From a virus (Duplodnaviria; Heunggongvirae; Uroviricota; Caudoviricetes), in the IMG/VR virus record IMGVR_UViG_2526164633_000017: 43,220 nucleotides of DNA; one strand, 5' to 3'. Shown in pieces: positions 22,628 to 43,220 of this stretch (the first letter of the stretch is position 1; the number at the start of each line of letters is the position of its first letter). Made by a program: the position numbers and the translations under genes. Below the pieces are notes generated by a model. The model was not told the DNA's origin. It made no database searches and saw nothing but the letters and a program-made list of their open reading frames with translations.

Positions 22628-22914
22628 GCACGGGGACGAGGACGCTTGACACCGGCAACGCGGGCACGACCTTCCGCCACATCCTGACCTCGGGAGGTCA
22701 GCGTTACGACATAAAAGCCGCGCAGGTTTTCCACGGTGACCAGTTGCTGCTCTGCCAGCCAGTCAATCTGGCCGCGAACCACATCGCGGGAAACGTTGTG
22801 TCCGTATGCATCCAGACAGTCCTGAAGGATGGATTCGTTTGCTTCGTTATTGCAGTCCATCAGGGAACGCAGGATGACCAGACGACGGTCTTCGGTCAGA
22901 ATATCGTTAATCAT
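22624..22914 (-). CDS. Hypothetical protein (Mu gp26-like by position)
   Basis: 96-aa ORF, translationally coupled to neighbours. Confidence 0.55.
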   Translation of the reverse strand: MINDILTEDRRLVILRSLMDCNNEANESILQDCLDAYGHNVSRDVVRGQIDWLAEQQLVTVENLRGFYVVTLTSRGQDVAEGRARVAGVKRPRPRA

Positions 22915-23228
22915 GAATTACTCCGGTTTACTGCGTTTTCAAGCAGCAGCTCCAGTTGATGGGAAAATGACTGCACCCGCTGGGACAGCACCCGGATATC
23001 GCCGGACAGCTCTGCAATTCGCAGGCGCATTTCGTGTACATCTTCTGTGCCAGGGATGCTGGCGTAGCGGGTTTCCATTTCGGTCATCCGGTTTTCAAGA
23101 CGCTCCACACGCTCAGTGCTGGCAAAACTACGACGCATTGCCCAGACGGCCCCACCGGCCACAACAGGCAACAGGTAAGGCCATAACGCTAAAACTGAAA
23201 TCAAATCCATTATTCTGCTCCACGGCAC
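22911..23228 (-). CDS. Membrane-anchored lysis-associated protein (Mu gp25-like)
   Basis: 105-aa ORF with one N-terminal hydrophobic segment (LISVLALWPYLLPVVAGGAVWAM) then coiled-coil-like region; located in lysis cassette. Confidence 0.6.
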   Translation of the reverse strand: MPWSRIMDLISVLALWPYLLPVVAGGAVWAMRRSFASTERVERLENRMTEMETRYASIPGTEDVHEMRLRIAELSGDIRVLSQRVQSFSHQLELLLENAVNRSNS

Positions 23229-23702: not shown

Positions 23703-23949
23703 GATGTTCTGTCTCGTCTGCCAGCCGCGCGGCACGATTTGCGGCACGGATAGCGGAAAATACCTGCATCGTCTGTTCCTGACCGTGTAACAACCATTCA
23801 GCCGTGTTGCGGGCCTGTTGCTCCGTCTGTAATTCACGGCGCAGCGTCTGGTTATCGTGGCGGGTGCTGTCCAGCCTGTGCCACAACACCCCGGACAAAA
23901 CGGCGGCAAACACGGCTGCCAGCAGTAAACTTTTACTGGCGAAGGTCAT
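23563..23949 (-). CDS. Inner-membrane spanin (Rz-like)
   Basis: 128-aa ORF with N-terminal TM segment (SLLLAAVFAAVLSGVLW) and charged coiled-coil periplasmic domain; directly after endolysin. Confidence 0.75.
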   Translation of the reverse strand: MTFASKSLLLAAVFAAVLSGVLWHRLDSTRHDNQTLRRELQTEQQARNTAEWLLHGQEQTMQVFSAIRAANRAARLADETEHHDAKQKITTAITGDNCSTRPVPAVAADRLRELEKRTRAIGGDPARN

Positions 23950-24451
23950 CCGCCCCCCTGATATTCCAGATAGCCATTTCCACTTCGCGACGGTTCATCA
24001 GTCCTTTCCATTTATGGCCTGCGGCAAACACCCAGCGGGCCATCTGGTCACGCGCTCCGGCGTAATCACCGGCATTGAGTTTTTTCAGCAGCGTTGATTT
24101 ACTGAATGCGGTAACACCGGTGTTGAAAATAAACGTTGCCAGCGCCGTTTTCTGATATGGCGTCAGCGGCACCCTGACAAGACGATCGATTGCCGCATAA
24201 ACCGGTTTTAAATCACTGTCGAGGAGAGCCATACACTCCGCATGGCTGTAACGGCGCATTTCGATATCCGGCCCGGTATGCCCCACACAGACCGAAAGCA
24301 CACCGCCAATATCGCGGTAAGGCATATAAGCGATATTTTCCAGGTGGATCAGAGACTGACGGGTCATTTCCTGATAACCACCCACACCGCCACCGGCAAT
24401 CGTTACAGCCAGCAGTGTGGCTTTCAGTTTTTTTGGTATCCCCGCCATCAT
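23933..24451 (-). CDS. lys: Endolysin, lysozyme-like with N-terminal signal-anchor-release (SAR) type segment
   Basis: 172-aa ORF; Gly/Ala-rich weakly hydrophobic N-terminus (LKATLLAVTIAGGGVGGY) followed by E-x8-D catalytic-type motif (ENIAYMPYRD) typical of T4-lysozyme-type muramidases. Confidence 0.8.
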   Translation of the reverse strand: MMAGIPKKLKATLLAVTIAGGGVGGYQEMTRQSLIHLENIAYMPYRDIGGVLSVCVGHTGPDIEMRRYSHAECMALLDSDLKPVYAAIDRLVRVPLTPYQKTALATFIFNTGVTAFSKSTLLKKLNAGDYAGARDQMARWVFAAGHKWKGLMNRREVEMAIWNIRGADDLRQ

Positions 24452-24521: not shown

Positions 24522-24548
24522 AAATAACCGGCAGGATGCCGGTTATTT
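24522..24548 (-). promoter_or_regulatory. Perfect interrupted palindrome AAATAACCGGC-N5-GCCGGTTATTT between C and lys; candidate activator site for late lys promoter and/or transcript end
   Basis: 11-bp arms at 24522-24532 and 24538-24548, overlapping the stop codon of the C-like gene, about 75 bp upstream of lys ATG. Confidence 0.45.
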
Positions 24549-24965
24549 TGGGCTTTCAGGTGAGAACAGATCAGGCTGATGACGTCGTGTATGCAGCTTT
24601 CTCTGGCGGGCAATAATCTGGTAGATCTGCGGCTGGGACAGGCGGTACTGGCGACGCAGTTCTTCCATGTTACGACCATTAAACTGGCAGTAAAGCAAAT
24701 CGTCGCGTAACGCGGTCAGGATCGTATCGCCGCAGGGGATGTAAAACTGCCGTCCACCCAGAAAACAGGACAGGGCAACGGCCTGTTTACGGGCAAGTTC
24801 ACGGGGATTGCTGACGTTCTGGCGTTTCAGTTCGTTTTCCAGAACATCAATCAGATCAACCACCGAACGGGGCCAGCGTGATTCCAGTTCCGGGGCCGGG
24901 ATGTTATCAATATGTCCGATTAACTGGCGAATTGCCGGATCGTGTTCAAATAAATCATGCTGCAT
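24543..24965 (-). CDS. C: Late transcription activator (Mu C-like, Mor/C family)
   Basis: 140-aa ORF; Mor/C family features (C-terminal HTH, QFNGRN motif shared with the Mor-like paralogue at 25944..26333); precedes lysis and morphogenesis genes. Confidence 0.85.
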   Translation of the reverse strand: MQHDLFEHDPAIRQLIGHIDNIPAPELESRWPRSVVDLIDVLENELKRQNVSNPRELARKQAVALSCFLGGRQFYIPCGDTILTALRDDLLYCQFNGRNMEELRRQYRLSQPQIYQIIARQRKLHTRRHQPDLFSPESPK

Positions 24966-25006
24966 ATTTTCCCCCGGTTAACAGACAAAAAGATACACCA
25001 CGGCAC

Positions 25007-25020
25007 TGATGGTTATCAGA
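25007..25020 (-). promoter_or_regulatory. Palindrome CTGATGGTTATCAG upstream of C-like gene; candidate middle-promoter element
   Basis: Dyad symmetric 14-mer in the 112-bp gap upstream of the C-like gene. Confidence 0.3.
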
Positions 25021-25077
25021 ACCACAAGGGCAATCACTTTTATCGCATTAATCAGCGTGGACGGCCCGAAACATTCA

Positions 25078-25308
25078 TCACTGAATTTTCTGTACACAAT
25101 ATTTTTCCTTATAACGTTGACAGTGGTGAAGAATTTCCGGCATATCAACTGACTGCCAGCCTTTCATGTAATAACTGCCGTGGGTGCCATCGTGCCCTGT
25201 GTAATCCATTGGCTTTGGTGGTGGGCCTCCGGCCTCCCGATGTAATACCTCCTGTCGTAAACGTTCACGCCTGCCGAACTGAAAGGACGCATCCCACCCT
25301 TTACCCAT
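25078..25308 (-). CDS. Hypothetical small protein
   Basis: ORF 25078..25362 in track; internal ATG at 25306-25308 avoids most overlap with upstream gene. No recognisable domain. Confidence 0.3.
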   Translation of the reverse strand: MGKGWDASFQFGRRERLRQEVLHREAGGPPPKPMDYTGHDGTHGSYYMKGWQSVDMPEILHHCQRYKEKYCVQKIQ

Positions 25309-25861
25309 GCAGAACCTCCCGACAGGCGCTGGCGAGCAGATCCAGACGGTTAAACCAGCCATTCAGATATTTCCCCTGCGAGGCACTGGATTTGATAATC
25401 CCTGCGTAATAGCGGGAACGACGCAGGAAGCACTGCAACAGCAGCCAGTCAGTATCGGCACGCAGAACGGCTGCGCGTGTGTTTTTACCGACGATGCCAT
25501 CATCATCAACACCTGCTGCCGCCTGGAGGATCTGAATCGCGCGTTTAACACCGTGCTGAACGGCAGCATCAAAAACGAATAAGGAAACGCCATCAGGCCA
25601 TTCGTTACACTTTGCCGCCAGCCAGTAATCACGCCAGTAGATCTGCGCCGCCTGCTCGCGGGTTAAATCCTTAATGCGGGTATCAGGTTTTCCGTCACCG
25701 TTAACATCGGTTTTGCCATCAATAACGCCGTCGCGACGGTCAGAAATACCGTATTTCGTTTCGCCGCCACGGTCGGCAGGATCATTAACATAGCCACCTT
25801 CAACATCAGGGCGTATAACGAAATTCAGCGAATGAAGGAATGCAGGGGAAAACTCAGGCAT
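25301..25861 (-). CDS. Peptidoglycan hydrolase, GH108-like N-terminal domain with C-terminal peptidoglycan-binding-like domain
   Basis: 186-aa ORF with motif EGGYVNDPADRGGETKYGI near N-terminus (characteristic of glycoside hydrolase family 108) and DGIVGKNT-type peptidoglycan-binding region. Confidence 0.7.
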   Translation of the reverse strand: MPEFSPAFLHSLNFVIRPDVEGGYVNDPADRGGETKYGISDRRDGVIDGKTDVNGDGKPDTRIKDLTREQAAQIYWRDYWLAAKCNEWPDGVSLFVFDAAVQHGVKRAIQILQAAAGVDDDGIVGKNTRAAVLRADTDWLLLQCFLRRSRYYAGIIKSSASQGKYLNGWFNRLDLLASACREVLHG

Positions 25862-25913
25862 GTTGCCCTCCTGTCATGAACGTTTTATCGTCACAACAGA
25901 ATATTGAGGGCGT

Positions 25914-25938
25914 AAAAAAAGCCGGATTAACCGGCTTT
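25914..25938 (-). terminator. Rho-independent terminator after mor-like gene (end of early transcript)
   Basis: On transcribed strand: AGCCGG-TTAAT-CCGGCT followed by T7 run, immediately after the mor-like stop. Confidence 0.65.
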
Positions 25939-25943
25939 ACTGT

Positions 25944-26333
25944 TTAAAACAAAGGGGGGGAACACTGACGATACTTTATACGCCGCATTCGTCGGATGGC
26001 TTTATAGACTGTGTTAAATGTCACACCATGACGGATTGCCAGTTCGTGAACATTGCGACCGTTGAAATCATTCCAGATACGCAAATCCCGAATAAGCGAA
26101 TCCAGAACCTGACCGCGTGGAATGTAGACCTGACCGCCGCCCAGATGCTTACAGATAGCCACAACAATCTCCAGTGAATGGGCCGGGTCAACACCTAACC
26201 GGGACAATTCCCCGCGCAGTAAATCGTTCAGCTCCGCCAGCAGTGCCGGAAAGCGTGACGTATCCTCTGCGGGATTGTCAAGATGTGCCAGGATGGTGTC
26301 ATCCTGCAAATCACCAAATAAATCTTCCGTCAT
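25944..26333 (-). CDS. mor: Middle operon regulator (Mu Mor-like, Mor/C family)
   Basis: 129-aa ORF, paralogous to the C-like protein (shared ...GGGQVYIPRG... / ...NDFNGRN... motifs). Confidence 0.85.
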   Translation of the reverse strand: MTEDLFGDLQDDTILAHLDNPAEDTSRFPALLAELNDLLRGELSRLGVDPAHSLEIVVAICKHLGGGQVYIPRGQVLDSLIRDLRIWNDFNGRNVHELAIRHGVTFNTVYKAIRRMRRIKYRQCSPPLF

Positions 26334-35169: not shown

Positions 35170-35183
35170 TTCAATTAGCCCGC
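35161..35183 (+). terminator. Hairpin at end of repressor gene (weak terminator candidate)
   Basis: GCGGGCTA-N7-TAGCCCGC overlapping the stop codon; followed by only a short T-run. Confidence 0.35.
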
Positions 35184-35233
35184 AGTGAACAGATTTTGAA
35201 GGCATTTAAAATGCTAAAATTGCAGTAACGCGT

Positions 35234-35389
35234 AGTATCAAATATTTTTTCGTTTTTAGCTTTCTTTGCGATGGTAGTATCAAATCGCATGTTGTGCGCA
35301 TAACACTGTTTTATGTCATAACTGTTTGTTTTATCCCATCAAATCCCGTTTAATCCACTTTCCTCCCGGATTTTTCACCAGTATCAAAT
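35234..35389. repeat. Three direct repeats (G)TAGTATCAAAT near the Mu-like prophage end; candidate transposase end-binding sites (L1-L3-like)
   Basis: Copies at 35234-35243, 35277-35286 and 35380-35389; distances from the inferred end (about 35395) are roughly 10, 115 and 155 bp, resembling the L1/L2/L3 spacing of Mu attL. Confidence 0.55.
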
Positions 35390-35421
35390 AATTTACCTCT
35401 CTATACGACTATGAGGAGAAA

Positions 35422-35727
35422 TTGCTTATTGCCAGATGGGAACTGACAGCAGAACAGGCTGTTACACAGCAGTTAAAAAATGAGGTGTCAAAAGGAAAAC
35501 TGATTGACACCGGGTTCTGTATTTTTGCCCTCAGTAAGCTGGCAATGGCGTTATCCAGTACGCTTGATTCCATCCCTTTATCCATGCAGCGACAGTTTCC
35601 TGATTTAACACCGCGCCATCTTGACCATCTGAAAACCCTTATTGCGAAGGGGGCAAATCAGTGTGCGCGGGCAGGGGATAAATTACCGGATTTACTCGAT
35701 GAATATATCAGAGCAACAACTGAATAA
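35422..35727 (+). pseudogene. nu1: Lambdoid terminase small subunit (Nu1-like), C-terminal half only; 5' part displaced by Mu-like prophage insertion
   Basis: Reading frame matches the C-terminal half of lambda Nu1 as I recall it (...FCIFALSKLA...LDSIPLSMQRQFP...LLDEYI...); frame hits a stop at 35389-35391 inside the terminal repeat region; no ATG start (track start is TTG). Confidence 0.65.
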
Positions 35728-37627
35728 TATGATGGCTGCCGTTTCGGTTGCGCTGCAGCCTCTGGTCAGGGTTGTACCAATGACGGCAGTTGAATGGGCT
35801 GATCAAAATTATTATCTGCCTAAAGAATCTTCATATGGTGAGGGAGAATGGAAAACGCTGCCATTCCAGATCGCCATTATGAACTGTATGGGTAACGACC
35901 AGGTTCGCACGGTTAACCTGATTAAATCTGCCCGTGTTGGCTATACAAAGATGTTGCTGGGGGTGGTCGGGTATTTTATTGAGCATAAATCCCGAAACAG
36001 TCTGCTTTTTCAGCCCACGGATTCTGCCGCTGAAGATTTTATGAAGTCTCACGTGGAGGCGACGATTCGGAACGTGCCATGCCTGAAAGACCTTTCCCCA
36101 TGGCTGGGTCGTAAACATCGTGACAATACTCTCACGCTGAAACGCTTTTCATCGGGCGTCGGTTTCTGGTGCCTGGGCGGCGCTGCCGCCAAAAACTACC
36201 GTGAAAAATCCGTGGACGTGGTCTGCTATGACGAACTTTCCTCGTTCGAGCCGGATGTCGAAAAAGAGGGCTCGCCAACCCTGCTGGGGGATAAGCGTAT
36301 TGAGGGGTCGGTGTGGCCAAAATCCATTCGCGGCTCGACGCCTAAAATCAAAGGCACCTGCCAGATCGAAAAAGCCGCTAACGAGTCGGCGCATTTTATG
36401 CGTTTTTATGTGCCCTGCCCGCACTGTGGGGAGGAGCAGTATCTGAAATTTGGCGATGAGTCCACGCCTTTTGGGCTTAAATGGGAGAAGGACAGCCCTG
36501 AAAGTGTTTTCTACCTCTGTGAACATCATGGCTGCGTGATCCATCAGTCTGAGCTTGACCAGAGCAACGGGCGGTGGATCTGTGAAAACACGGGCATGTG
36601 GACCCGTGACGGTCTGACGTTTTTCAGCGCCCGGGGTGATGAAATTCCGCCGCCGCGCTCCATCATGTTCCATATCTGGACGGCGTACAGTCCGTTCACC
36701 ACCTGGGTACAGATTGTCTATGACTGGCTGGATGCACTGAAAGATCCCAACGGCCTGAAAACCTTTGTGAACACCACGCTGGGCGAGACCTGGGAAGAGG
36801 CCGTGGGCGAAAAACTCGATCACCAGGTACTGATGGATAAGGTGGTGCGTTACACGGCGGCGGTGCCTGCCCGGGTGGTTTATCTGACGGCGGGCATTGA
36901 CTCGCAGCGAAACCGTTTTGAGATGTATGTCTGGGGATGGGCTCCGGGAGAGGAAGCCTTTCTGGTGGATAAAATCATCATTATGGGGCGTCCTGATGAG
37001 GAAGAGACGCTGTTACGTGTGGATGCGGCGATCAACAAAAAATACCGCCATGCGGATGGCACCGAAATGACTATTTCCCGTGTCTGCTGGGACACCGGGG
37101 GGATCGATGGTGAAATTGTTTATCAGAGATCAAAAAAACACGGTGTTTTCCGGGTGCTGCCGGTAAAAGGCGCATCTGTCTATGGCAAGCCGGTGATCAC
37201 CATGCCAAAAACCCGCAATCAGCGGGGCGTGTATCTGTGTGAAGTGGGAACGGATACCGCAAAAGAAATTCTCTATGCCCGTATGAAAGCCGATCCCACG
37301 CCTGCGGATGAAGCCACGTCGTATGCCATCCGTTTTCCTGATGATCCGGAGATTTTTTCGCAGACAGAGGCGCAGCAACTGGTGGCGGAAGAGCTGGTGG
37401 AGAAGTGGGAAAAAGGAAAGATGCGTCTGCTGTGGGATAACAAAAAGCGGCGTAACGAAGCGCTGGACTGCCTGGTGTATGCCTACGCGGCATTACGTGT
37501 GTCCGTGCAACGCTGGCAGCTTGATCTGGCTGTACTGGCAAAATCCCGGGAAGAAGAGACGACCCGGCCAACCCTGAAAGAACTGGCAGCGAAGCTGTCC
37601 GGAGGAGTGAATGGTTACAGTCGCTGA
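35699..37627 (+). CDS. A: Lambdoid terminase large subunit (gpA-like)
   Basis: ORF track 35642..37627; ATG at 35699 gives MNISEQQLNNMMAAVS...TAVEWADQNYYLPKES..., 642 aa, lambda A-like throughout. Confidence 0.9.
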   Translation: MNISEQQLNNMMAAVSVALQPLVRVVPMTAVEWADQNYYLPKESSYGEGEWKTLPFQIAIMNCMGNDQVRTVNLIKSARVGYTKMLLGVVGYFIEHKSRNSLLFQPTDSAAEDFMKSHVEATIRNVPCLKDLSPWLGRKHRDNTLTLKRFSSGVGFWCLGGAAAKNYREKSVDVVCYDELSSFEPDVEKEGSPTLLGDKRIEGSVWPKSIRGSTPKIKGTCQIEKAANESAHFMRFYVPCPHCGEEQYLKFGDESTPFGLKWEKDSPESVFYLCEHHGCVIHQSELDQSNGRWICENTGMWTRDGLTFFSARGDEIPPPRSIMFHIWTAYSPFTTWVQIVYDWLDALKDPNGLKTFVNTTLGETWEEAVGEKLDHQVLMDKVVRYTAAVPARVVYLTAGIDSQRNRFEMYVWGWAPGEEAFLVDKIIIMGRPDEEETLLRVDAAINKKYRHADGTEMTISRVCWDTGGIDGEIVYQRSKKHGVFRVLPVKGASVYGKPVITMPKTRNQRGVYLCEVGTDTAKEILYARMKADPTPADEATSYAIRFPDDPEIFSQTEAQQLVAEELVEKWEKGKMRLLWDNKKRRNEALDCLVYAYAALRVSVQRWQLDLAVLAKSREEETTRPTLKELAAKLSGGVNGYSR

Positions 37628-37817
37628 ACTGCAGGCGCTGCGTCAGGCGCGCCTTGATTTATTAACCGGTAAACGGGTGGTGTCTGTCCAGAAAGATGGT
37701 CGCAGAATTGAATATACGGCGGCTTCTCTGGATGAGCTTAACCGGGCGATCAATGATGCGGAGTCGGTACTGGGGACAACCCGACGTCGCCGTCGTCCGC
37801 TGGGAGTGAGGTTATGA
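37611..37817 (+). CDS. W: Head-tail joining protein (gpW-like)
   Basis: 68-aa ORF ...LLTGKRVVSVQKDGRRIEYTAASL... Confidence 0.85.
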   Translation: MVTVAELQALRQARLDLLTGKRVVSVQKDGRRIEYTAASLDELNRAINDAESVLGTTRRRRRPLGVRL

Positions 37818-39406
37818 AACGAACGCCTGTCCTGATTGATGTGAACGGCGTTCCGCTTCGTGAGAGTCTCAGCTACAACGGGGGCGGCGCAGGATTTGGC
37901 GGGCAAATGGCGGAGTGGTTGCCACCGGCGCAGAGTGTCGATGCGGCCCTGCTGCCCGCGTTGCGTCTGGGGAATGCCCGGGCAGATGATCTGGTGCGCA
38001 ATAACGGAATAGCGGCTAATGCGGTGGCCCTGCATAAGGATCACATTGTCGGGCATATGTTTCTGATCAGCTACCGTCCGAACTGGCGCTGGCTGGGGAT
38101 GCGGGAGACCGCAGCAAAAAGCTTTGTCGATGAGGTGGAGGCGGCCTGGTCGGAATACGCAGAAGGGATGTCTGGCGAGATCGACGTGGAAGGAAAACGC
38201 ACATTTACGGAGTTTATCCGTGAAGGTGTTGGCGTTCATGCGTTTAACGGCGAAATCTTTGTGCAGCCGGTCTGGGATACGGAAACCACGCAGTTATTCC
38301 GTACGCGTTTTAAAGCCGTGAGTCCGAAACGGGTGGACACGCCAGGACACGGTATGGGGAACCGTTTTCTGCGGGCCGGGGTGGAGGTCGATCGATATGG
38401 CCGTGCCGTTGCGTACCATATCTGTGAGGATGATTTTCCTCGCTCCGGGAGTGGACGATGGGAACGGATCCCGCGTGAACTTCCCACCGGGCGTCCGGCC
38501 ATGCTGCATATTTTCGAGCCGGTGGAGGACGGGCAGACCCGTGGGGCTAATCAGTTTTACAGCGTCATGGAACGGCTGAAGATGCTGGATTCCCTGCAGG
38601 CAACACAGCTTCAGTCGGCCATTGTGAAAGCCATGTATGCAGCGACGATTGAAAGTGAACTTGATACCGAAAAGGCCTTTGAATATATCGCCGGCGCGCC
38701 ACAGGAGCAGAAGGATAATCCGCTTATTAATATTCTGGAGAAGTTCTCCAGCTGGTATGACACGAATAACGTGACACTGGGCGGTGTCAAAATTCCGCAC
38801 CTTTTCCCTGGTGATGATCTGAAACTACAGACTGCGCAGGATTCAGACAATGGATTTTCTGCGCTTGAACAGGCGCTGCTGCGGTATATCGCCGCCGGTC
38901 TTGGCGTTTCCTACGAACAGTTGTCCCGTGATTACTCGAAGGTCAGTTATTCAAGTGCCAGGGCCTCTGCCAATGAGTCGTGGCGCTATTTTATGGGGCG
39001 GCGAAAATTTATTGCGGCCCGGCTGGCCACGCAGATGTTTTCCTGCTGGCTGGAAGAGGCACTTCTTCGGGGGATTATCCGTCCGCCACGGGCGCGTTTT
39101 GATTTTTATCAGGCGCGATCAGCCTGGTCACGGGCAGAGTGGATTGGTGCCGGAAGAATGGCCATTGACGGGCTCAAGGAGGTTCAGGAATCGGTGATGC
39201 GCATTGAGGCCGGACTGAGCACGTATGAGAAAGAGCTGGCGCTGATGGGCGAGGATTATCAGGACATTTTCCGCCAGCAGGTCAGGGAATCTGCAGAGCG
39301 GCAAAAAGCCGGACTCTCACGTCCGGTGTGGATAGCGCAGGCGTATCAGCAGCAGATAGCGGAGAGTCGCAGGCCGGAAGAGGAGACAACACCACGTGAG
39401 ACGTAA
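37814..39406 (+). CDS. B: Lambdoid portal protein (gpB-like)
   Basis: 530-aa ORF following W. Confidence 0.9.
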   Translation: MKRTPVLIDVNGVPLRESLSYNGGGAGFGGQMAEWLPPAQSVDAALLPALRLGNARADDLVRNNGIAANAVALHKDHIVGHMFLISYRPNWRWLGMRETAAKSFVDEVEAAWSEYAEGMSGEIDVEGKRTFTEFIREGVGVHAFNGEIFVQPVWDTETTQLFRTRFKAVSPKRVDTPGHGMGNRFLRAGVEVDRYGRAVAYHICEDDFPRSGSGRWERIPRELPTGRPAMLHIFEPVEDGQTRGANQFYSVMERLKMLDSLQATQLQSAIVKAMYAATIESELDTEKAFEYIAGAPQEQKDNPLINILEKFSSWYDTNNVTLGGVKIPHLFPGDDLKLQTAQDSDNGFSALEQALLRYIAAGLGVSYEQLSRDYSKVSYSSARASANESWRYFMGRRKFIAARLATQMFSCWLEEALLRGIIRPPRARFDFYQARSAWSRAEWIGAGRMAIDGLKEVQESVMRIEAGLSTYEKELALMGEDYQDIFRQQVRESAERQKAGLSRPVWIAQAYQQQIAESRRPEEETTPRET

Positions 39407-40901
39407 TCTTTCACACATTATTGCCGCAGCATTCAATGAACCGCTGCTTCTGGAGCCCGCCTATGCGCGGGTTTTCTTTTCGCGCTCGGGCGCGAGATGG
39501 GGGCAGCAAGTCTTTCGGTACCACAACAGCAGGTACAGTTTGATGCTCCCGGAATGCTGGCTGAAACGGACGAGTACATGGCCGGAGGTAAACGACCGGC
39601 CCGTGTTTACAGGGTGGTGAACGGTATTGCTGTACTGCCGGTGACCGGCACGCTGGTGCACCGGCTGGGGGGTATGCGGCCATTTTCCGGAATGACAGGC
39701 TATGACGGTATTGTCGCCTGTCTTCAGCAGGCAATGGCGGATAGCCAGGTGCGGGGCGTACTGCTGGACATTGACAGTCCGGGCGGGCAGGCCGCCGGCG
39801 CGTTTGACTGCGCTGACATGATTTACCGCCTCCGTCAGCAGAAGCCGGTCTGGGCACTGTGCAATGACACGGCCTGTTCTGCAGCCATGCTGCTGGCGTC
39901 GGCCTGCTCCCGACGGCTGGTTACCCAGACATCCCGTATCGGCTCCATTGGCGTGATGATGAGCCATGTCAGCTATGCCGGTCATCTGGCGCAGGCCGGT
40001 GTGGATATCACGCTGATTTACTCAGGGACGCACAAGGTGGATGGCAATCAGTTTGAAGCCTTACCGGCAGAGGTTCGCCAGGACATGCAGCAGCGCATTG
40101 ATGCGGCGCGCCGGGTGTTTGCCGAAAAAGTGGCGATGTTTACCGGTCTGTCTGTTGATGCCGTCACGGGAACAGAGGCCGCCGTTTTTGAAGGTCAGTC
40201 CGGCATTGATGCCGGGCTGGCGGATGAATTAGTCAATGCGTCGGATGCCATCAGTGTGATGGCCACGGCGCTGAACAGTAATGTCAGAGGAGGCACTATG
40301 CCGCAATTAACTGCAACGGAAGCCGCAGCGCAGGAGAACCAGCGAGTGATGGGGATCCTGACATGCCAGGAAGCGAAAGGACGTGAACAGCTTGCCACGA
40401 TGCTGGCAGGACAACAGGGCATGAGCGTTGAACAGGCCCGGGCGATTCTGGCCGCGGCGGCACCGCAGCAGCCGGTGGCATCCGCGCAGAGTGAAGCCGA
40501 TCGCATTATGGCGTGTGAAGAAGCGAACGGTCGTGAACAACTGGCGGCAACGCTGGCGGCGATGCCGGAGATGACGGTGGAAAAAGCCCGCCCGATCCTG
40601 GCTGCTTCACCGCAGGCGGATGCCGGACCCTCACTCCGTGATCAGATCATGGCACTGGATGAGGAAAAAGGGGCGTGAGGCGCAGGCTGAACAGCTGGCT
40701 GCCTGCCCGGGAATGACTGTGGAGAGCGCCCGGGCTGTGCTGGCTGCGGGATCAGGTAAGGCAGAACCGGTCTCTGCATCCACAACCGCCCTGTTTGAAC
40801 GCATCATGGCGAACCATTCACCGGCTGCGGTACAGGGTGGCGTGCCACAGACGTCAGCAGACGGTGATGCGGACGTGAAAATGCTCATGGCCATGCCATG
40901 A
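39396..40901 (+). pseudogene. C: Prohead protease/scaffold (gpC/Nu3-like) with at least two frameshifts and a triplicated C-terminal repeat
   Basis: N-terminus in frame 0 (39396..39620: MRRNLSHIIAAAFNEPLLLEPAYARVFF) shifts near 39476-39482 (T-run) to the frame of ORF 39497..40678; second shift at GAAAAAGGGG about 40660 to the frame of ORF 40620..40901. Confidence 0.7.
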
Positions 40902-40937
40902 AGTCAGTGCTGACCATCAACAGGAGGTTTTTACAAT

Positions 40938-41283
40938 ATGGTAACGAAAACATCACTGAACAGCGTGCGGAAGTACGTATTTTTGCCGGTAATGATCCGG
41001 CTCATACCGCCACAGGCAGCAGCGGGATTTCCTCGGCAACACCGGCACTGACGCCCCTGATGCTGGATGAAGCCAGCGGGAAACTGGTGGTCTGGGACGG
41101 ACAGAAAGCCGGTAGTGCAGTTGGCATACTGGTACTGCCGCTTGAAGGCACAGAGACGGTACTGACCTATTACAAGTCGGGGACCTTGCGACGGAGGCAA
41201 TCCGCTGGCCTGAAAGTGTGGATGAACACAAAAAGGCAAATGCCTTTGCCGGCAGTGCCCTGAGTCACGCGGCGCTGCCGTAA
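40938..41283 (+). pseudogene. D: Head decoration protein (gpD-like) with two frameshifts
   Basis: ATG at 40938 with RBS CAGGAGG; frame shifts at A-run near 40946 into frame of ORF 40898..41263 (…GNDPAHTATG…), then near 41190 into the frame that ends ...AFAGSALSHAALP at 41283. Confidence 0.65.
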
Positions 41284-41340
41284 CACGTTATCAGGCCACC
41301 GCGGTGGCCTGACTGATTTCTGAATGAAAGGAACTGATTT

Positions 41341-42367
41341 ATGGGATTGTTTACGACCCGCCAGTTACTCGGTTATACCGAACAAAAAGTGAAATTTCGT
41401 GCGCTGTTTCTGGAGCTGTTTTTCCGCCGTACGGTGAATTTCCATACCGAAGAGGTGATGCTGGACAAAATTACCGGAAAAACGCCGGTGGCGGCCTATG
41501 TCTCCCCGGTTGTTGAAGGAAAAGTGCTGCGTCATCGCGGTGGTGAAACCCGCGTGTTACGTCCGGGCTACGTCAAGCCGAAACACGAATTTAATTACCA
41601 GCAGGCGGTTGAGCGTCTTCCCGGTGAAGATCCGGCTCAACTGAACGACCCGGCCTACCGTCGTCTGCGTATCATCACCGATAACCTCAAACAGGAAGAG
41701 CATGCCATTGTCCAGGTGGAAGAAATGCAGGCGGTGAATGCCGTGCTGTATGGCAAATACACCATGGAAGGGGATCAGTTTGATACTGTCGAGGTGGATT
41801 TTGGACGCTCTGAAGGAAATAACATTGAGCAGGCCGACGGTAAAAATGGTCTGAGCAGGACCGTGATACGTTTGATCCGACGCATGATATTGACCTCTAC
41901 TGCGATCAGGCCAGCGGTCTTGTGAATATTGCCATTATGGACGGTACTGTCTGGCGTCTGCTGAATGGTTTTAAGCTGTTCCGCGAAAAACTGGATACCC
42001 GTCGCGGCTCAAATTCACAACTCGAAACGGCAGTGAAAGACCTGGGGGCGGTGGTGTCTTTCAAAGGGTATTACGGCGATCTGGCCATTGTGGTGGCGAA
42101 AACGTCTTATGTGGCAGAGGACGGTACCGAAAAACGTTATCTGCCGGAGGGCACGCTGGTCCTGGGAAATACGGCTGCAGATGGGATCCGTTGTTACGGT
42201 GCCATTCAGGATGCGCAGGCGTTGTCCGAAGGTGTGGTGGCTTCTTCCCGTTACCCGAACACTGGCTGACCGTGGGCGATCCGGCCCGTGAATTTACCAT
42301 GACGCAGTCCGCACCGCTGATGGTGCTGCCGGATCCGGATGAGTTTGTGGTGGTGCAGGTGAAATAA
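41341..42367 (+). pseudogene. E: Major capsid protein (gpE-like) with two frameshifts
   Basis: Three collinear frame segments: 41341..about 41838, about 41838..42262, 42263..42367 (…WLTVGDPAREFTMTQSAPLMVLPDPDEFVVVQVK); shifts at A5 run near 41838 and near 42260. Confidence 0.7.
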
Positions 42368-42375
42368 TCCGTGAG

Positions 42376-42404
42376 CGGGGGCGAAATGCCCCCGTGTCTT
42401 TTTT
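42376..42404 (+). terminator. Rho-independent terminator after capsid gene
   Basis: CGGGGGC-GAAAT-GCCCCCG followed by TGTCTTTTTT. Confidence 0.7.
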
Positions 42405-42418
42405 CACAGGGGGCTGAT

Positions 42419-42802
42419 ATGGCAACAAAAGAAGAAAATCAGAAACGTCTTCGTCAACTGGCTGGCCTGCTGGGGCGCGAGGCGGATATGTCGGGGAGTG
42501 CTGCGGATATTGCGCAACGTGTGTCTGAGTGGGAAGAGGAGCTTGCTGCTTCCCGGGAGGGCATTATGCCTGGTGATGAGAGCGGGCCTGAGCAAAATCA
42601 CACAGACGATGGTGAGCAGTTGCACAACACTGATGCTACGGATGATGTTAAAGCGGTCCGTGTGCGGCAATGCCTGCATGTGATGGGGTATTGCCCGGAG
42701 ACAGGCCGTCCCGTTGAACTGACGTACCGGGGCATGCGTGTTCTGGTGCCATCACCACTGGCGACAGCCATGATACAGCACGGAACGGCTGAGCATGCGT
42801 GA
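42419..42802 (+). CDS. FI: DNA packaging/head assembly protein (gpFI-like)
   Basis: ORF track 42371..42802; ATG at 42419 lies after the terminator with RBS AGGGGG; acidic protein. Confidence 0.7.
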   Translation: MATKEENQKRLRQLAGLLGREADMSGSAADIAQRVSEWEEELAASREGIMPGDESGPEQNHTDDGEQLHNTDATDDVKAVRVRQCLHVMGYCPETGRPVELTYRGMRVLVPSPLATAMIQHGTAEHA

Positions 42803-43148
42803 TTTTCAGAATGCCTTTGATGCTGCCCTTGCCGGGGTGGACAGCACGATTGTTGAAGTGATGGGGCTCTGTGCGCAGTTCACCTCGGGGGCACAGTGTG
42901 GCAGCGAAGTTCAGGGGGTTTTTGACGATCCGGAGTCGCTGGGGTTTGCCGGTAGCGGGGTCCGTATTGAAGGAAGCTGTCCGTCATTATTTGTGCGGAC
43001 GGATACGGTGCGTGCCGTGCGGCGTGGTGACACGCTGACCATTAATGGTGAGACATTCTGGGTGGACCGTGTTTCTCCGGATGACGGAGGGAGTTGTTAT
43101 CTCTGGCTCAACCGTGGGCAACCACCCGCAGTTAACCGGCGACGATAA
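42795..43148 (+). CDS. FII: Head-tail connector protein (gpFII-like)
   Basis: 117-aa ORF ending ...FWVDRVSPDDGGSCYLWLNRGQPPAVNRRR. Confidence 0.85.
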   Translation: MRDFQNAFDAALAGVDSTIVEVMGLCAQFTSGAQCGSEVQGVFDDPESLGFAGSGVRIEGSCPSLFVRTDTVRAVRRGDTLTINGETFWVDRVSPDDGGSCYLWLNRGQPPAVNRRR

Positions 43149-43162
43149 ACGCAGGGTGAATT

Positions 43163-43220
43163 ATGGCGATAAAAGGGCTTGATCAGGCGATTGAAAATCT
43201 GAGCCGGGTTCGTAAAAACG
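43163..43220 (+). CDS. Z: Tail completion protein (gpZ-like), 5' end only; continues beyond window end
   Basis: ATG at 43163, MAIKGLDQAIENLSRVRKN..., lambda Z-like N-terminus; truncated by window. Confidence 0.7.
   Translation, partial: MAIKGLDQAIENLSRVRKN

Follow-up and report, generated by a model that had tools for sequence, protein, structure and literature searches.

A GH108-family gene between mor and C of a Mu-like prophage, probably a retained endolysin of ancestral type

The window analysed here, a stretch of 43,220 nucleotides of viral DNA (IMG/VR record IMGVR_UViG_2526164633_000017), holds a Mu-like prophage in which an intact gene for a glycoside hydrolase family 108 (GH108) protein lies between mor and C, both of which encode Mor-family proteins. 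Judged by sequence, this gene is an ortholog of the endolysin of Mu-like transposable phages that have no C gene. The data as a whole are probably best explained by a retained GH108 endolysin of ancestral type, driven by the middle promoter Pm and auxiliary in lysis. The enzyme family is ordinary and already rightly named in RefSeq, as 'glycoside hydrolase family 108 protein' in the region of E. coli FDAARGOS_1059 that coincides with the window (NZ_CP066032 4021021-4064240); it is the regulatory and genomic setting that is unusual. Mu end sequences were looked for in the window and not found, and the prophage boundary was set by the annotation of this identical region in RefSeq. The genes concerned are, in the direction of transcription:

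25944..26333, minus strand: mor, the middle-operon activator (Pfam Mor, E 1.4e-29; 92% identical to Mu Mor)
25301..25861, minus strand: GH108 plus PG_binding_3 gene for a predicted muramidase (186 aa, ATG start, stop included, intact ORF)
25682..25741, minus strand: codons 41-60 of the GH108 gene (DRRDGVIDGKTDVNGDGKPD), which contain an Asp/Gly-rich insertion of about 14 residues and include DVNGDG
25078..25308, minus strand: E18-like gene, 76 aa (83% identical to Mu E18, 71% to that of Kp4866-3; PHROG 2121)
24978..25097, minus strand: gp20-like 39-aa single-TM protein, with a GTG start in the window (PHROG 19823)
24543..24965, minus strand: C, the late-gene activator and last middle-operon gene (Pfam Mor, E 9e-34; 99% identical to Mu C)
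23933..24451, minus strand: gp22-type SAR endolysin of the T4-lysozyme family (Phage_lysozyme, E 4e-36; 98% identical to Mu gp22)
22911..23228, minus strand: gp25 (DUF2730) releasin homolog (100% identical to Mu gp25)

An earlier note on this DNA had described a GH108-like enzyme with a peptidoglycan-binding domain, and a profile search bears this out, with both Pfam domains far above their cut-offs. Glyco_hydro_108 (PF05838) matched residues 20-104 with 87.4 bits against a cut-off of 21.2 (E 9.3e-25) and PG_binding_3 matched the C-terminal residues 107-173 with 52.3 bits against 24.6 (E 7e-14), while PHROG 315, 'endolysin', matched the protein at 1e-51. The hallmark of GH108 in the Pfam and CAZy descriptions is an EGGY motif with the catalytic glutamate close to the N-terminus. 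The motif is present as V-E21-G-G-Y24 (Glu21 codon at 25799-25801) and aligns with the EGGY of 2IKB and 7DNP; E21 and Y24 are invariant in alignments of 26 and 34 sequences. Relatives in the PDB identified by sequence were 2IKB, 7DNP, 2NR7, 6V3Z and 6V40. An AF2 model of the protein (pLDDT 80.8, pTM 0.83, confidence low at residues 22-47, adjoining the catalytic Glu) was matched by Foldseek at a probability of 1.00 to 7DNP, 2IKB, 2IS5, 2NR7, 6V3Z and 6V40, with query-normalised TM-scores of 0.54-0.72 against these six GH108 structures and Brucella SagA (7DNP) as the top match.

No TM or SAR segment was detected in the protein, the maximum 19-residue Kyte-Doolittle mean being 0.49 for windows starting at residues 1-30, and the charged residues E3, R17, D19 and E21 lie within its first 21 positions. 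The earlier statement that it has neither a signal nor a SAR segment thus holds, as does the statement that the phage encodes two unrelated muralytic enzymes, the second being the Phage_lysozyme gene at 23933..24451, whose Mu counterpart gp22 has been shown experimentally to be a SAR endolysin (Chamblee et al. 2022). The GH108 product is predicted to be a soluble cytoplasmic N-acetylmuramidase with a C-terminal peptidoglycan-binding domain. Within the Asp/Gly-rich insertion and its flanks, D41, D44, D48, D52, D56, D60, G45, G49 and G55 are invariant among 34 homologs. The insertion is limited to the enterobacterial Mu-like clade, being absent from the Vibrio and Shewanella orthologs and from PDB 2IKB, and resembles a putative calcium loop of the DxDxDG type in a part of the model where confidence is low.

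In each of the 14 related Mu-like phages and prophages that lack C, an ortholog of the gene occupies the endolysin slot. The order in these relatives is Mor, a conserved terminator/Pm-like element, GH108, E18-like, TM protein, 3-TM holin-like protein, gp24, DUF2730, gp26 and gp27. The arrangement GemA-Mor-(TM)-GH108-E18-(TM)-holin-like-DUF2730-gp26-gp27 was seen in eight long genome loci, Kp4866-3, Vibrio 1.028.O and Shewanella MuM16-2; three short Trabulsiella fragments among the relatives carry the GH108-E18 core only, and adjacency of GH108 and E18 was found in 14/14. Neither C, SAR lysozyme nor Rz was present in the relatives within the stretches compared. In Pseudoalteromonas phage HS6, GH108 and the E18-like gene are followed by a GTA_holin_3TM protein (43.5 bits, above the cut-off), and in both HS6 and phage Martha the gene in the endolysin slot has an E18-like gene after it. 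The Vibrio ortholog has been listed as the endolysin of its phage, paired with DUF2730 (Chamblee et al. 2022, Table S1). Downstream of the endolysin, E18 is a conserved partner in the lysis cassettes of Mu-like phages, and the E18 of Mu, an orphan there, looks like a relic of an ancestral lysis cassette. PHROG 2121 is a single profile in which positions 3-75 correspond to E18 and positions 88-272 to the 3-TM holin-like protein. This raises the possibility of fused E18/holin-like proteins, although a search for E18 homologs gave only proteins of 51-76 aa and no such fusion. In phages of the Kp4866-3 type, E18 is followed by a multi-TM protein to which Mu E19 has no significant similarity (E 0.14), and E19 was therefore treated as a mere positional analog of it.

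Upstream of the GH108 gene the following elements were located:

25866..25872, minus strand: ribosome-binding site AGGAGGG, 4 nt (CAAC) before the GH108 ATG (read from the sequence)
25890..25941, minus strand: Pm-type middle promoter region (homology with Mu Pm)
about 25926-25941, minus strand: homolog of the Mor site, AGTAAAGCCGGTTAAT, in the Pm-type region
25898-25903, minus strand: -10-like TATTCT, in the Pm-type region
near 25890, minus strand: predicted transcription start, about 30 nt ahead of the GH108 gene
25912..25938, minus strand: Rho-independent terminator hairpin and T-run at the end of the early (mor) transcript, overlapping the Mor site

Pm has been described as a 16-bp Mor site centred at -43.5 with a recognisable -10 and no -35 (PMC4390567). 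The region in the window is nearly identical to Mu Pm as far as the -10 and diverges from Mu about 19 nt past it. The hairpin after mor, which was missed by a consensus terminator scan, is supported by folding (dG -12.4 kcal/mol, z -3.2) and by identity with Mu, and its core GCCGGTTAATCCGGC occurs exactly once in the window. The element AAGCCGGT(T/A)AATCCGGCTTTTTTT lies directly 5' of GH108 in 9/9 enterobacterial loci examined and 5' of E18 in Mu, where E18 is the first gene of the middle operon; the Pm core likewise precedes GH108 in all enterobacterial relatives without C. At the GH108 gene no sigma-70-like site other than Pm was found, nor was a terminator after the gene, whose stop codon overlaps the E18-like start (ATGGGTAA), so positioned that the E18-like gene could be translationally coupled to GH108. 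From its promoter homology with Mu, GH108 is expected to be the first middle gene in the transcript from Pm. The placement given in the earlier note, after the early-transcript terminator and before C, agrees with these positions, and the expectation of expression alongside C and not with the late lysis genes fits the conservation of Pm to the -10 and the strong ribosome-binding site. Middle-phase expression is atypical for an endolysin.

The earlier note had allowed that the gene might already be present in reference Mu. This is not so: comparison of the mor-C interval with Mu, D108 and Mu-like prophages found it missing from Mu, D108 and SfMu. Two lysins arranged in this way are also present in the elppa5 and SE11 prophages, as they are in vB_YpM_5 and vB_YpM_6, Yersinia phages that form plaques (PMC10434027); Yersinia phages vB_YpM_3 and vB_YpM_23 have no GH108 gene. 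The gene is not discussed in the paper on the Yersinia Mu-like phages (PMC10434027) or in that on Shewanella MuM16 (PMC8541194).

Neighbour-joining trees of GH108, Mor and E18, built from short proteins without bootstrap and with marine phages as the outgroup, each separate the E. coli clade that has C from the C-less relatives, which range from Klebsiella to Serratia, the position of STEC388 varying from tree to tree. The agreement of the three trees argues that GH108 was inherited with its neighbours and lost in Mu. An alternative is recent horizontal gain, in which GH108 entered a Mu-like ancestor between Pm and E18 through recombination with a different transposable phage, instead of descending from the common ancestor, and has the same biochemical role. 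The gene is rare, for among 5426 complete E. coli genomes it occurs in only 8, whereas a Mu-type C gene occurs in 41, and the mor-C interval is mosaic, with E19 and GH108 in all four combinations of presence and absence; both would suit such a gain, as would the clean indel junctions, from whose sequences the direction of the indel is not evident. In the mor-E18 spacer of Mu, only a 16-nt leader (12/16 matches) and the E18 ribosome-binding site region align. However, divergence from the relatives without C is similar for all three proteins (identity to the Kp4866-3 type of 72% for GH108, 71% for E18 and 63% for Mor), GH108 and E18 are neighbours in every outgroup, a search of 5.8 billion clustered proteins gave no closer donor, the next cluster having at most 74% identity, and the GC content of the gene is unremarkable, in line with that of its flanks, with no hint of foreign origin. 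Horizontal gain is consequently considered unlikely, and the gene is better read as a vertically inherited endolysin of ancestral type that reference Mu appears to have lost.

In E. coli prophages that have C, purifying selection on the GH108 gene is strong. The window and SE11 copies differ by 23 synonymous and 2 nonsynonymous changes (dN/dS 0.02, dS about 0.2) and the window and elppa5 copies by 13 synonymous changes and no nonsynonymous ones; no frameshift or stop was present in the four copies compared. These values bear on the idea that the gene is a passenger without a role in lysis, its holin gone and peptidoglycan never usefully reached, kept by linkage or for some cytoplasmic role. 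A tblastn search of the whole window with five holin-like proteins from relatives gave nothing below E 0.05, although a holin of unrelated sequence could have gone unseen, and Mu itself is described in the literature as having no holin (PMC9239132). Mu, D108 and SfMu lyse their hosts without GH108, so the gene is dispensable in principle. All of this would suit a passenger, but a dN/dS of about 0.02 with intact copies is unlike a neutral relic, the catalytic and loop residues are invariant and the gene has a strong ribosome-binding site, which together make a passenger improbable.

The earlier note had itself proposed a virion-associated entry lysin or a moron, and both proposals fared poorly. 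As a moron of benefit to the host, GH108 would be a muramidase like TtsA, ChiP or SagA, made in the lysogen for secretion or envelope remodelling. Signal-less GH108 proteins have indeed been recruited to non-lytic secretion, TtsA and ChiP in type 10 secretion systems among them (PMC13284979), SagA is the top structural match and the gene is accessory within the Mu group. Against this, the gene is without a separate promoter or terminator, overlaps the next gene and yields a tree that matches those of Mor and E18; Pm requires Mor, which is not produced in the lysogen (PMC4390567); NCBIfam NF040573, 'holin-associated N-acetylmuramidase', scored 71.2 bits against a cut-off of 240; and no cargo or holin gene is nearby. 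A moron is therefore very improbable. Still less credible is an entry lysin digesting the wall locally at DNA injection, argued in the note from the encoding of a peptidoglycan hydrolase outside the late lysis cluster, since the product is small and soluble and has two domains, neither of them structural or for tail attachment, its gene is in the regulatory middle operon more than 3 kb from where the structural genes begin, Mu, D108 and SfMu infect without it, and its orthologs stand in the endolysin position beside a holin-like gene, one of them being the Vibrio protein already listed as an endolysin. The negative evidence on both proposals is a further ground for reading GH108 as a vertically inherited endolysin.

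Under the preferred reading, the Mu lineage would have gained a gp20-C-Plys-SAR lysozyme-Rz/Rz1 block where the holin had been, a gain that would have divided the former operon in two, with a 'middle' portion dependent on Mor and a late portion dependent on C. GH108, though not E18, would later have been lost from reference Mu, D108 and SfMu, GH108 being retained by the window prophage and a minority of E. coli Mu-type prophages. On activation of Pm by Mor, GH108 would be expressed as the first, well-translated cistron, followed by E18, gp20 and C. The enzyme may then accumulate harmlessly in the cytoplasm because it has neither an export signal nor a cognate holin, and would meet the sacculus only once the inner membrane had been compromised by the gp22/gp25/spanin pathway or some membrane factor, the releasin function of Mu gp25 having been reported (PMC9239132). 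At that point it would most likely act as an auxiliary soluble endolysin that cleaves glycan strands. Like a canonical holin-dependent soluble endolysin the protein has no signal peptide or SAR segment; it differs in that its phage has no holin homolog, whereas the relatives have a holin-like gene two genes downstream of GH108, and in that its promoter, by homology, is not a late one. No route to the periplasm is evident, which weighs against a real contribution to lysis.

A wider reading, plausible although we would sooner doubt than affirm it, is that the 'middle operon' of Mu derives from an ancestral lysis/late operon driven by Mor, of which it is the severed front half, and that GH108 and E18 form a second route to lysis without a classical holin. 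If so, the ancestral operon would have run from Pm through the GH108 endolysin, E18, a TM protein and a holin onwards, and Pm would be orthologous to the late lysis promoter of single-activator Mu-like phages. Both the three-tier cascade and the holin-less lysis of Mu would follow from replacement of the holin by the gp20-C-Plys-SAR lysozyme-spanin block, and the window prophage would be a surviving intermediate still running both endolysins. As bolder corollaries, the GH108 and E18 route could act via gp25 or gp20, for example, and the invariant Asp/Gly loop could be a calcium gate through which the enzyme is active only outside the cytoplasm. Mu is a textbook model whose lysis was lately described as holin-less with a single SAR endolysin, and whose E18, E19 and gp20 are non-essential middle genes. 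The finding of GH108 behind Pm in close relatives of Mu, with E18 as its neighbour elsewhere, allows a concrete origin to be proposed for the middle operon and the lysis strategy of Mu, and offers a natural system for the behaviour of a signal-less endolysin once its holin has been replaced by a SAR endolysin and a releasin.

Among known systems, the closest counterparts are the GH108/PG_binding_3 endolysins of Vibrio 1.028.O (AUR82803), Shewanella vB_SspM_MuM16-2 (p20), HS6 (gp39) and Kp4866-3, which share the architecture of the window protein, its EGGY motif and the lack of a signal peptide. Across the C-less Mu-like phages these proteins have 43-72% full-length identity to it and the same place after mor and the terminator/Pm-like element and before the E18-like gene. 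Downstream of GH108 such phages carry a gene for a 3-TM holin-like protein, and they have neither a second endolysin nor C or Rz, whereas in the window prophage the holin is missing and C and the SAR lysozyme/Rz cassette follow. The window protein is also without the C-terminal 'GGQxSVxRS' tail found in most enterobacterial relatives. The lysis system of Mu (gp22, gp25 releasin and gp23/23.1 spanin; Chamblee et al. 2022) is complete in the window prophage at 97-100% protein identity. Both have the same Pm and C regulatory layout; reference Mu differs in having no GH108 gene and is described with a single endolysin and no holin.

Coliphage N4 gp61 is the founding GH108 N-acetylmuramidase (Stojkovic and Rothman-Denes 2007, as cited in PMC13284979). 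It belongs to the same catalytic family, PF05838, and in a tblastn search N4-like endolysins matched the catalytic domain at about 33-37% identity; however, N4, a virulent podovirus, has gp61 as its only late endolysin, and the match spans only about half of the query. Rcc00555 of RcGTA is probably itself a GH108 enzyme. Rcc00555-rcc00556 is a described endolysin-holin pair (PMC5026251), and HS6 pairs a GH108-type muramidase with a GTA_holin_3TM family protein, a holin that the window does not have. TtsA, which is said to need a holin (PMC13284979), Sen1395, ChiP and Brucella SagA serve in secretion or the assembly of secretion systems, and have the same fold as the window protein (Foldseek probability 1.00) and, like it, no signal peptide. 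The sequence relation of this TtsA-type group is low (E 7.5e-6 to 6V3Z and 7e-4 to 6V40), and its loci belong to a toxin or chitinase context, whereas the GH108 gene of the window lies under phage lytic-cycle regulation.

The reading frame at window 25301..25861 (minus strand) codes for 186 amino acids. The earlier note had proposed a GH108-like enzyme with a peptidoglycan-binding domain, and profile searches agreed, matching Pfam Glyco_hydro_108 at residues 20-104 (E 9.3e-25, 87 bits against a cut-off of 21), PG_binding_3 at residues 107-173 (E 6.8e-14) and PHROG 315, 'endolysin' (1.4e-51). Solved GH108 relatives recovered by sequence were NMB1012 (2IKB/2IS5, 1e-20), Brucella SagA (7DNP), 2NR7, Sen1395 and TtsA, and an AlphaFold2 model (pLDDT 80.8, pTM 0.83; residues 22-47 of low confidence) retrieved the same structures with Foldseek at a probability of 1.00. 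The protein contains an EGGY motif, of which E21 and Y24 are invariant among aligned homologs. RefSeq names it 'glycoside hydrolase family 108 protein' in E. coli FDAARGOS_1059, the coordinates being those of the window. A hydropathy check found no hydrophobic N-terminal segment, as expected of an enzyme claimed to have neither signal nor SAR segment. Judged from its sequence, the protein is a regular member of the GH108-PG3 endolysin family in every comparison made. Reading frame, domains, fold and motif all agree with a second peptidoglycan hydrolase beside the gp22-type SAR lysozyme. It scored too low for a TtsA-type equivalog (71 bits against a cut-off of 240).

The gene lies after the early terminator and between mor and C, the activators of the middle operon and late genes respectively; gene order and hairpin fold agree on this position:

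25944..26333, minus strand, mor, preceded by gemA
about 25912-25938, minus strand, terminator hairpin after mor (fold dG -12.4 kcal/mol, z -3.2)
25078..25308, minus strand, E18-like gene, its ATG overlapping the GH108 stop
between the E18-like gene and C, minus strand, gp20-like transmembrane (TM) protein of 39 aa
24543..24965, minus strand, C, downstream of the gp20-like gene

Beyond C follow the SAR lysozyme, Rz/Rz1, gp24, gp25 (DUF2730), gp26 and gp27. The overlap of the GH108 stop with the E18 start allows translational coupling. When the window was aligned with Mu, SfMu and Yersinia phage vB_YpM_5, it proved nearly identical to Mu Pm, the Mor-dependent middle promoter, over the stretch that starts at the mor end, spans the terminator and includes a -10-like hexamer. 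In Mu, Pm comprises a 16-bp dyad bound by Mor and centred at -43.5, with a -10 but no -35 element (PMC4390567). By homology, GH108 would come first on the Mor-dependent middle transcript in the window, which supports its predicted expression with C. A scan found neither a promoter-like site other than Pm nor a terminator flanking GH108, which argues against a moron. The protein likewise did not qualify as a virion-associated lysin; of the interpretation in the earlier note, a second, signal-less GH108 enzyme between mor and C was retained, while the entry lysin and the moron were set aside.

The same alignment showed that approximately 570 bp of the window are missing from Mu and SfMu, a segment that starts roughly 20 nt past the -10 hexamer, ends at the E18 start and contains the GH108 ribosome binding site (AGGAGGG) and ORF; the mor-C interval of both is thus without GH108. 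E19 is an extra gene in Mu that is missing from the window and SfMu. The interval (window 24966-25943, compared with Mu, SfMu and loci L018 and L019) is a mosaic hot spot, all four combinations of GH108/E19 being found: +/- in the window, +/+ in the E. coli prophages elppa5 and SE11, -/+ in Mu and -/- in SfMu. Translation of gp20 starts at GTG in the window and SfMu but at ATG in Mu and vB_YpM_5.

Copies of GH108 with at least 95% nucleotide identity were present in 8 of 5426 complete E. coli genomes, against 41 with a Mu-type C gene. An identical protein, annotated 'hypothetical', is encoded by the plaque-forming Yersinia phages vB_YpM_5 and vB_YpM_6, whose paper does not discuss the gene (PMC10434027). 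The next relatives (64-74% identical) are frequent in Klebsiella, Citrobacter, Enterobacter, Serratia and Pectobacterium, and some few bear the source name 'Mu phage endolysin Lys'. Vibrio and Shewanella have Mu-like phages with more distant orthologs (43% identity). The truncated E. coli STEC388 prophage (L020 709-3324) carries a 198-aa variant, 73% identical, sharing an 'RPDxEG' indel with the window protein; an IS66-family element interrupts this prophage two small genes downstream of its GH108 gene.

Reference proteins were mapped by tblastn onto eight long genome loci, three short fragments and three phages. Every long locus had the order GemA-Mor-(small TM protein)-GH108-E18-like-(multi-TM protein)-holin-like protein of about 200 aa with three TM segments-DUF2730-gp26-gp27, and GH108 adjoined E18 in 14 of 14 mapped loci and phages. 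Where checked (Klebsiella phage Kp4866-3, Shewanella, Vibrio), the gene ahead of DUF2730 encodes a DksA-type zinc-finger protein and occupies the position of gp24. No C paralog, T4-type lysozyme or Rz was detected by tblastn in the examined stretches. The holin-like gene of Pseudoalteromonas phage HS6 scored 43.5 bits, above the Pfam GTA_holin_3TM cut-off; the enterobacterial and Shewanella proteins matched weakly, below it. Chamblee et al. (Table S1; PMC9239132) give the ortholog of Vibrio 1.028.O as the endolysin of its phage and pair it with the DUF2730 protein encoded there. In Vibrio phage Martha the E18-like gene also follows the endolysin-slot gene, there a DUF5675 protein.

In all Mu-like phages examined, Martha included, E18 homologs immediately follow the gene in the endolysin slot. 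They have a precomputed Pfam assignment, PF26867, and one profile, PHROG 2121, joins E18 with the 3-TM holin-like protein. Their positions in comparison loci are:

L004 4535-4795
L005 4516-4779
L006 4570-4788
L022 2501-2764
L023 2501-2776

The elppa5 layout is Mor-GH108-E18-E19-C-SAR lysozyme-Rz-gp24-gp25, and that of SE11 is Mor-GH108-E18-E19'-small-C'-Phage_lysozyme-DUF2730. The SE11 lysozyme is a different, shorter protein (L018 1343-1771, 142 aa) after the C paralog, with DUF2730 next and neither Rz nor gp24 annotated, which makes a third layout of the lysis cassette in the Mu group.

The core AAGCCGGT(T/A)AATCCGGCTTTTTTT, in Mu the terminator hairpin overlapping the Mor site, immediately precedes GH108 in each of the nine examined enterobacterial loci that lack C, from Klebsiella to Serratia, amid diverging flanks; in Mu, D108-type and SfMu genomes it immediately precedes E18. 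Two prophages without C carry a second copy (TGAAGCCGGTAAATCCGGCTTTTTTTATGCC) approximately 7.6 kb downstream of GH108 (L010 15560-15600, L011 15565-15579), just preceding an ORF starting MPKPVTQLEF, so that the element recurs ahead of one or more further genes downstream. Such recurrence would fit direct control of more than one promoter by a Mor-type activator in phages without C.

Neighbour-joining trees of GH108, Mor and E18 shared one topology, in which the C-containing E. coli clade (window, elppa5, SE11) was separate from the Klebsiella-to-Serratia relatives without C and the marine phages formed the outgroup; only the placement of the STEC388 prophage differed. Identities to the Kp4866-3 type were similar (GH108 72%, Mor 63%, E18 71%), the GC content of GH108 was unremarkable, and no closer donor was found in a collection of 5.8 billion proteins. 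The elppa5 and SE11 prophages keep fuller versions of the region than the window. In the simplest account, the ancestor already had GH108-E18 behind Pm, and GH108 was lost from Mu, D108 and SfMu. Recent gain is retained as an improbable rival because the junction sequences against Mu do not prove the direction of the indel. Under ancestral retention, GH108 would be an endolysin stranded in the middle operon; E18 is therefore implied to be a relic of a lysis cassette and may be a component orphaned in Mu, and the front of the middle operon may as a whole be such a relic. The new element is the setting: two endolysins of different export classes in a Mu-proper phage; no paper discussing this setting or a lysis-cassette relic in the Mu group was found.

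GH108 of the window differed from that of SE11 by 23 synonymous and 2 nonsynonymous changes (dS 0.20, dN/dS 0.02) and from that of elppa5 by 13 synonymous and none nonsynonymous. These counts indicate strong purifying selection on the gene in phages equipped with a SAR endolysin as well, and they speak against a relic in decay. As read from the sequence, the protein is an intact GH108 enzyme of muramidase type, without export signal, behind a Pm-type promoter and an ortholog of the relatives' endolysin. Unlike a canonical soluble endolysin, it is without a recognisable holin in its genome, no homolog of the 3-TM holin-like protein being found in the window, and its gene is not behind a late promoter. 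Mor would switch GH108 on in the middle phase, the enzyme would build up in the cytoplasm, reach peptidoglycan only upon inner-membrane breach and then supplement gp22 with glycan-strand cleavage. Candidate routes through the membrane are its failure through gp22 and spanin, the small TM protein gp20, or the DUF2730 protein, which pairs with signal-less endolysins in other Mu-like phages. Mu has been described as holin-less, with gp25 freeing the SAR endolysin (PMC9239132).

An Asp/Gly-rich insertion was located by alignment of homologs:

25682-25741, minus strand, codons 41-60 of GH108

Within these residues (DRRDGVIDGKTDVNGDGKPD) an insertion of about 14 residues is carried by 34 of 34 aligned enterobacterial homologs, with nine invariant Asp/Gly positions, and is absent from the Vibrio and Shewanella orthologs and from 2IKB; among the aligned proteins only the enterobacterial Mu-like GH108 clade has it. 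Its DVNGDG resembles a calcium loop of DxDxDG type. Metal binding is only a lead, since the structure model lacks confidence in this region.

The window begins within the tail-fibre region, the other prophage end being outside it. The repressor end abuts a truncated carbohydrate ABC-transporter permease gene beside ycjO, ycjN and ycjM (window ~35170-35581 and 35568-43220); the annotation of ycjM is that of a pseudogene interrupted by a stop, and the pspFABCDE operon lies further on. This arrangement fits Mu-type transposition into a host gene.
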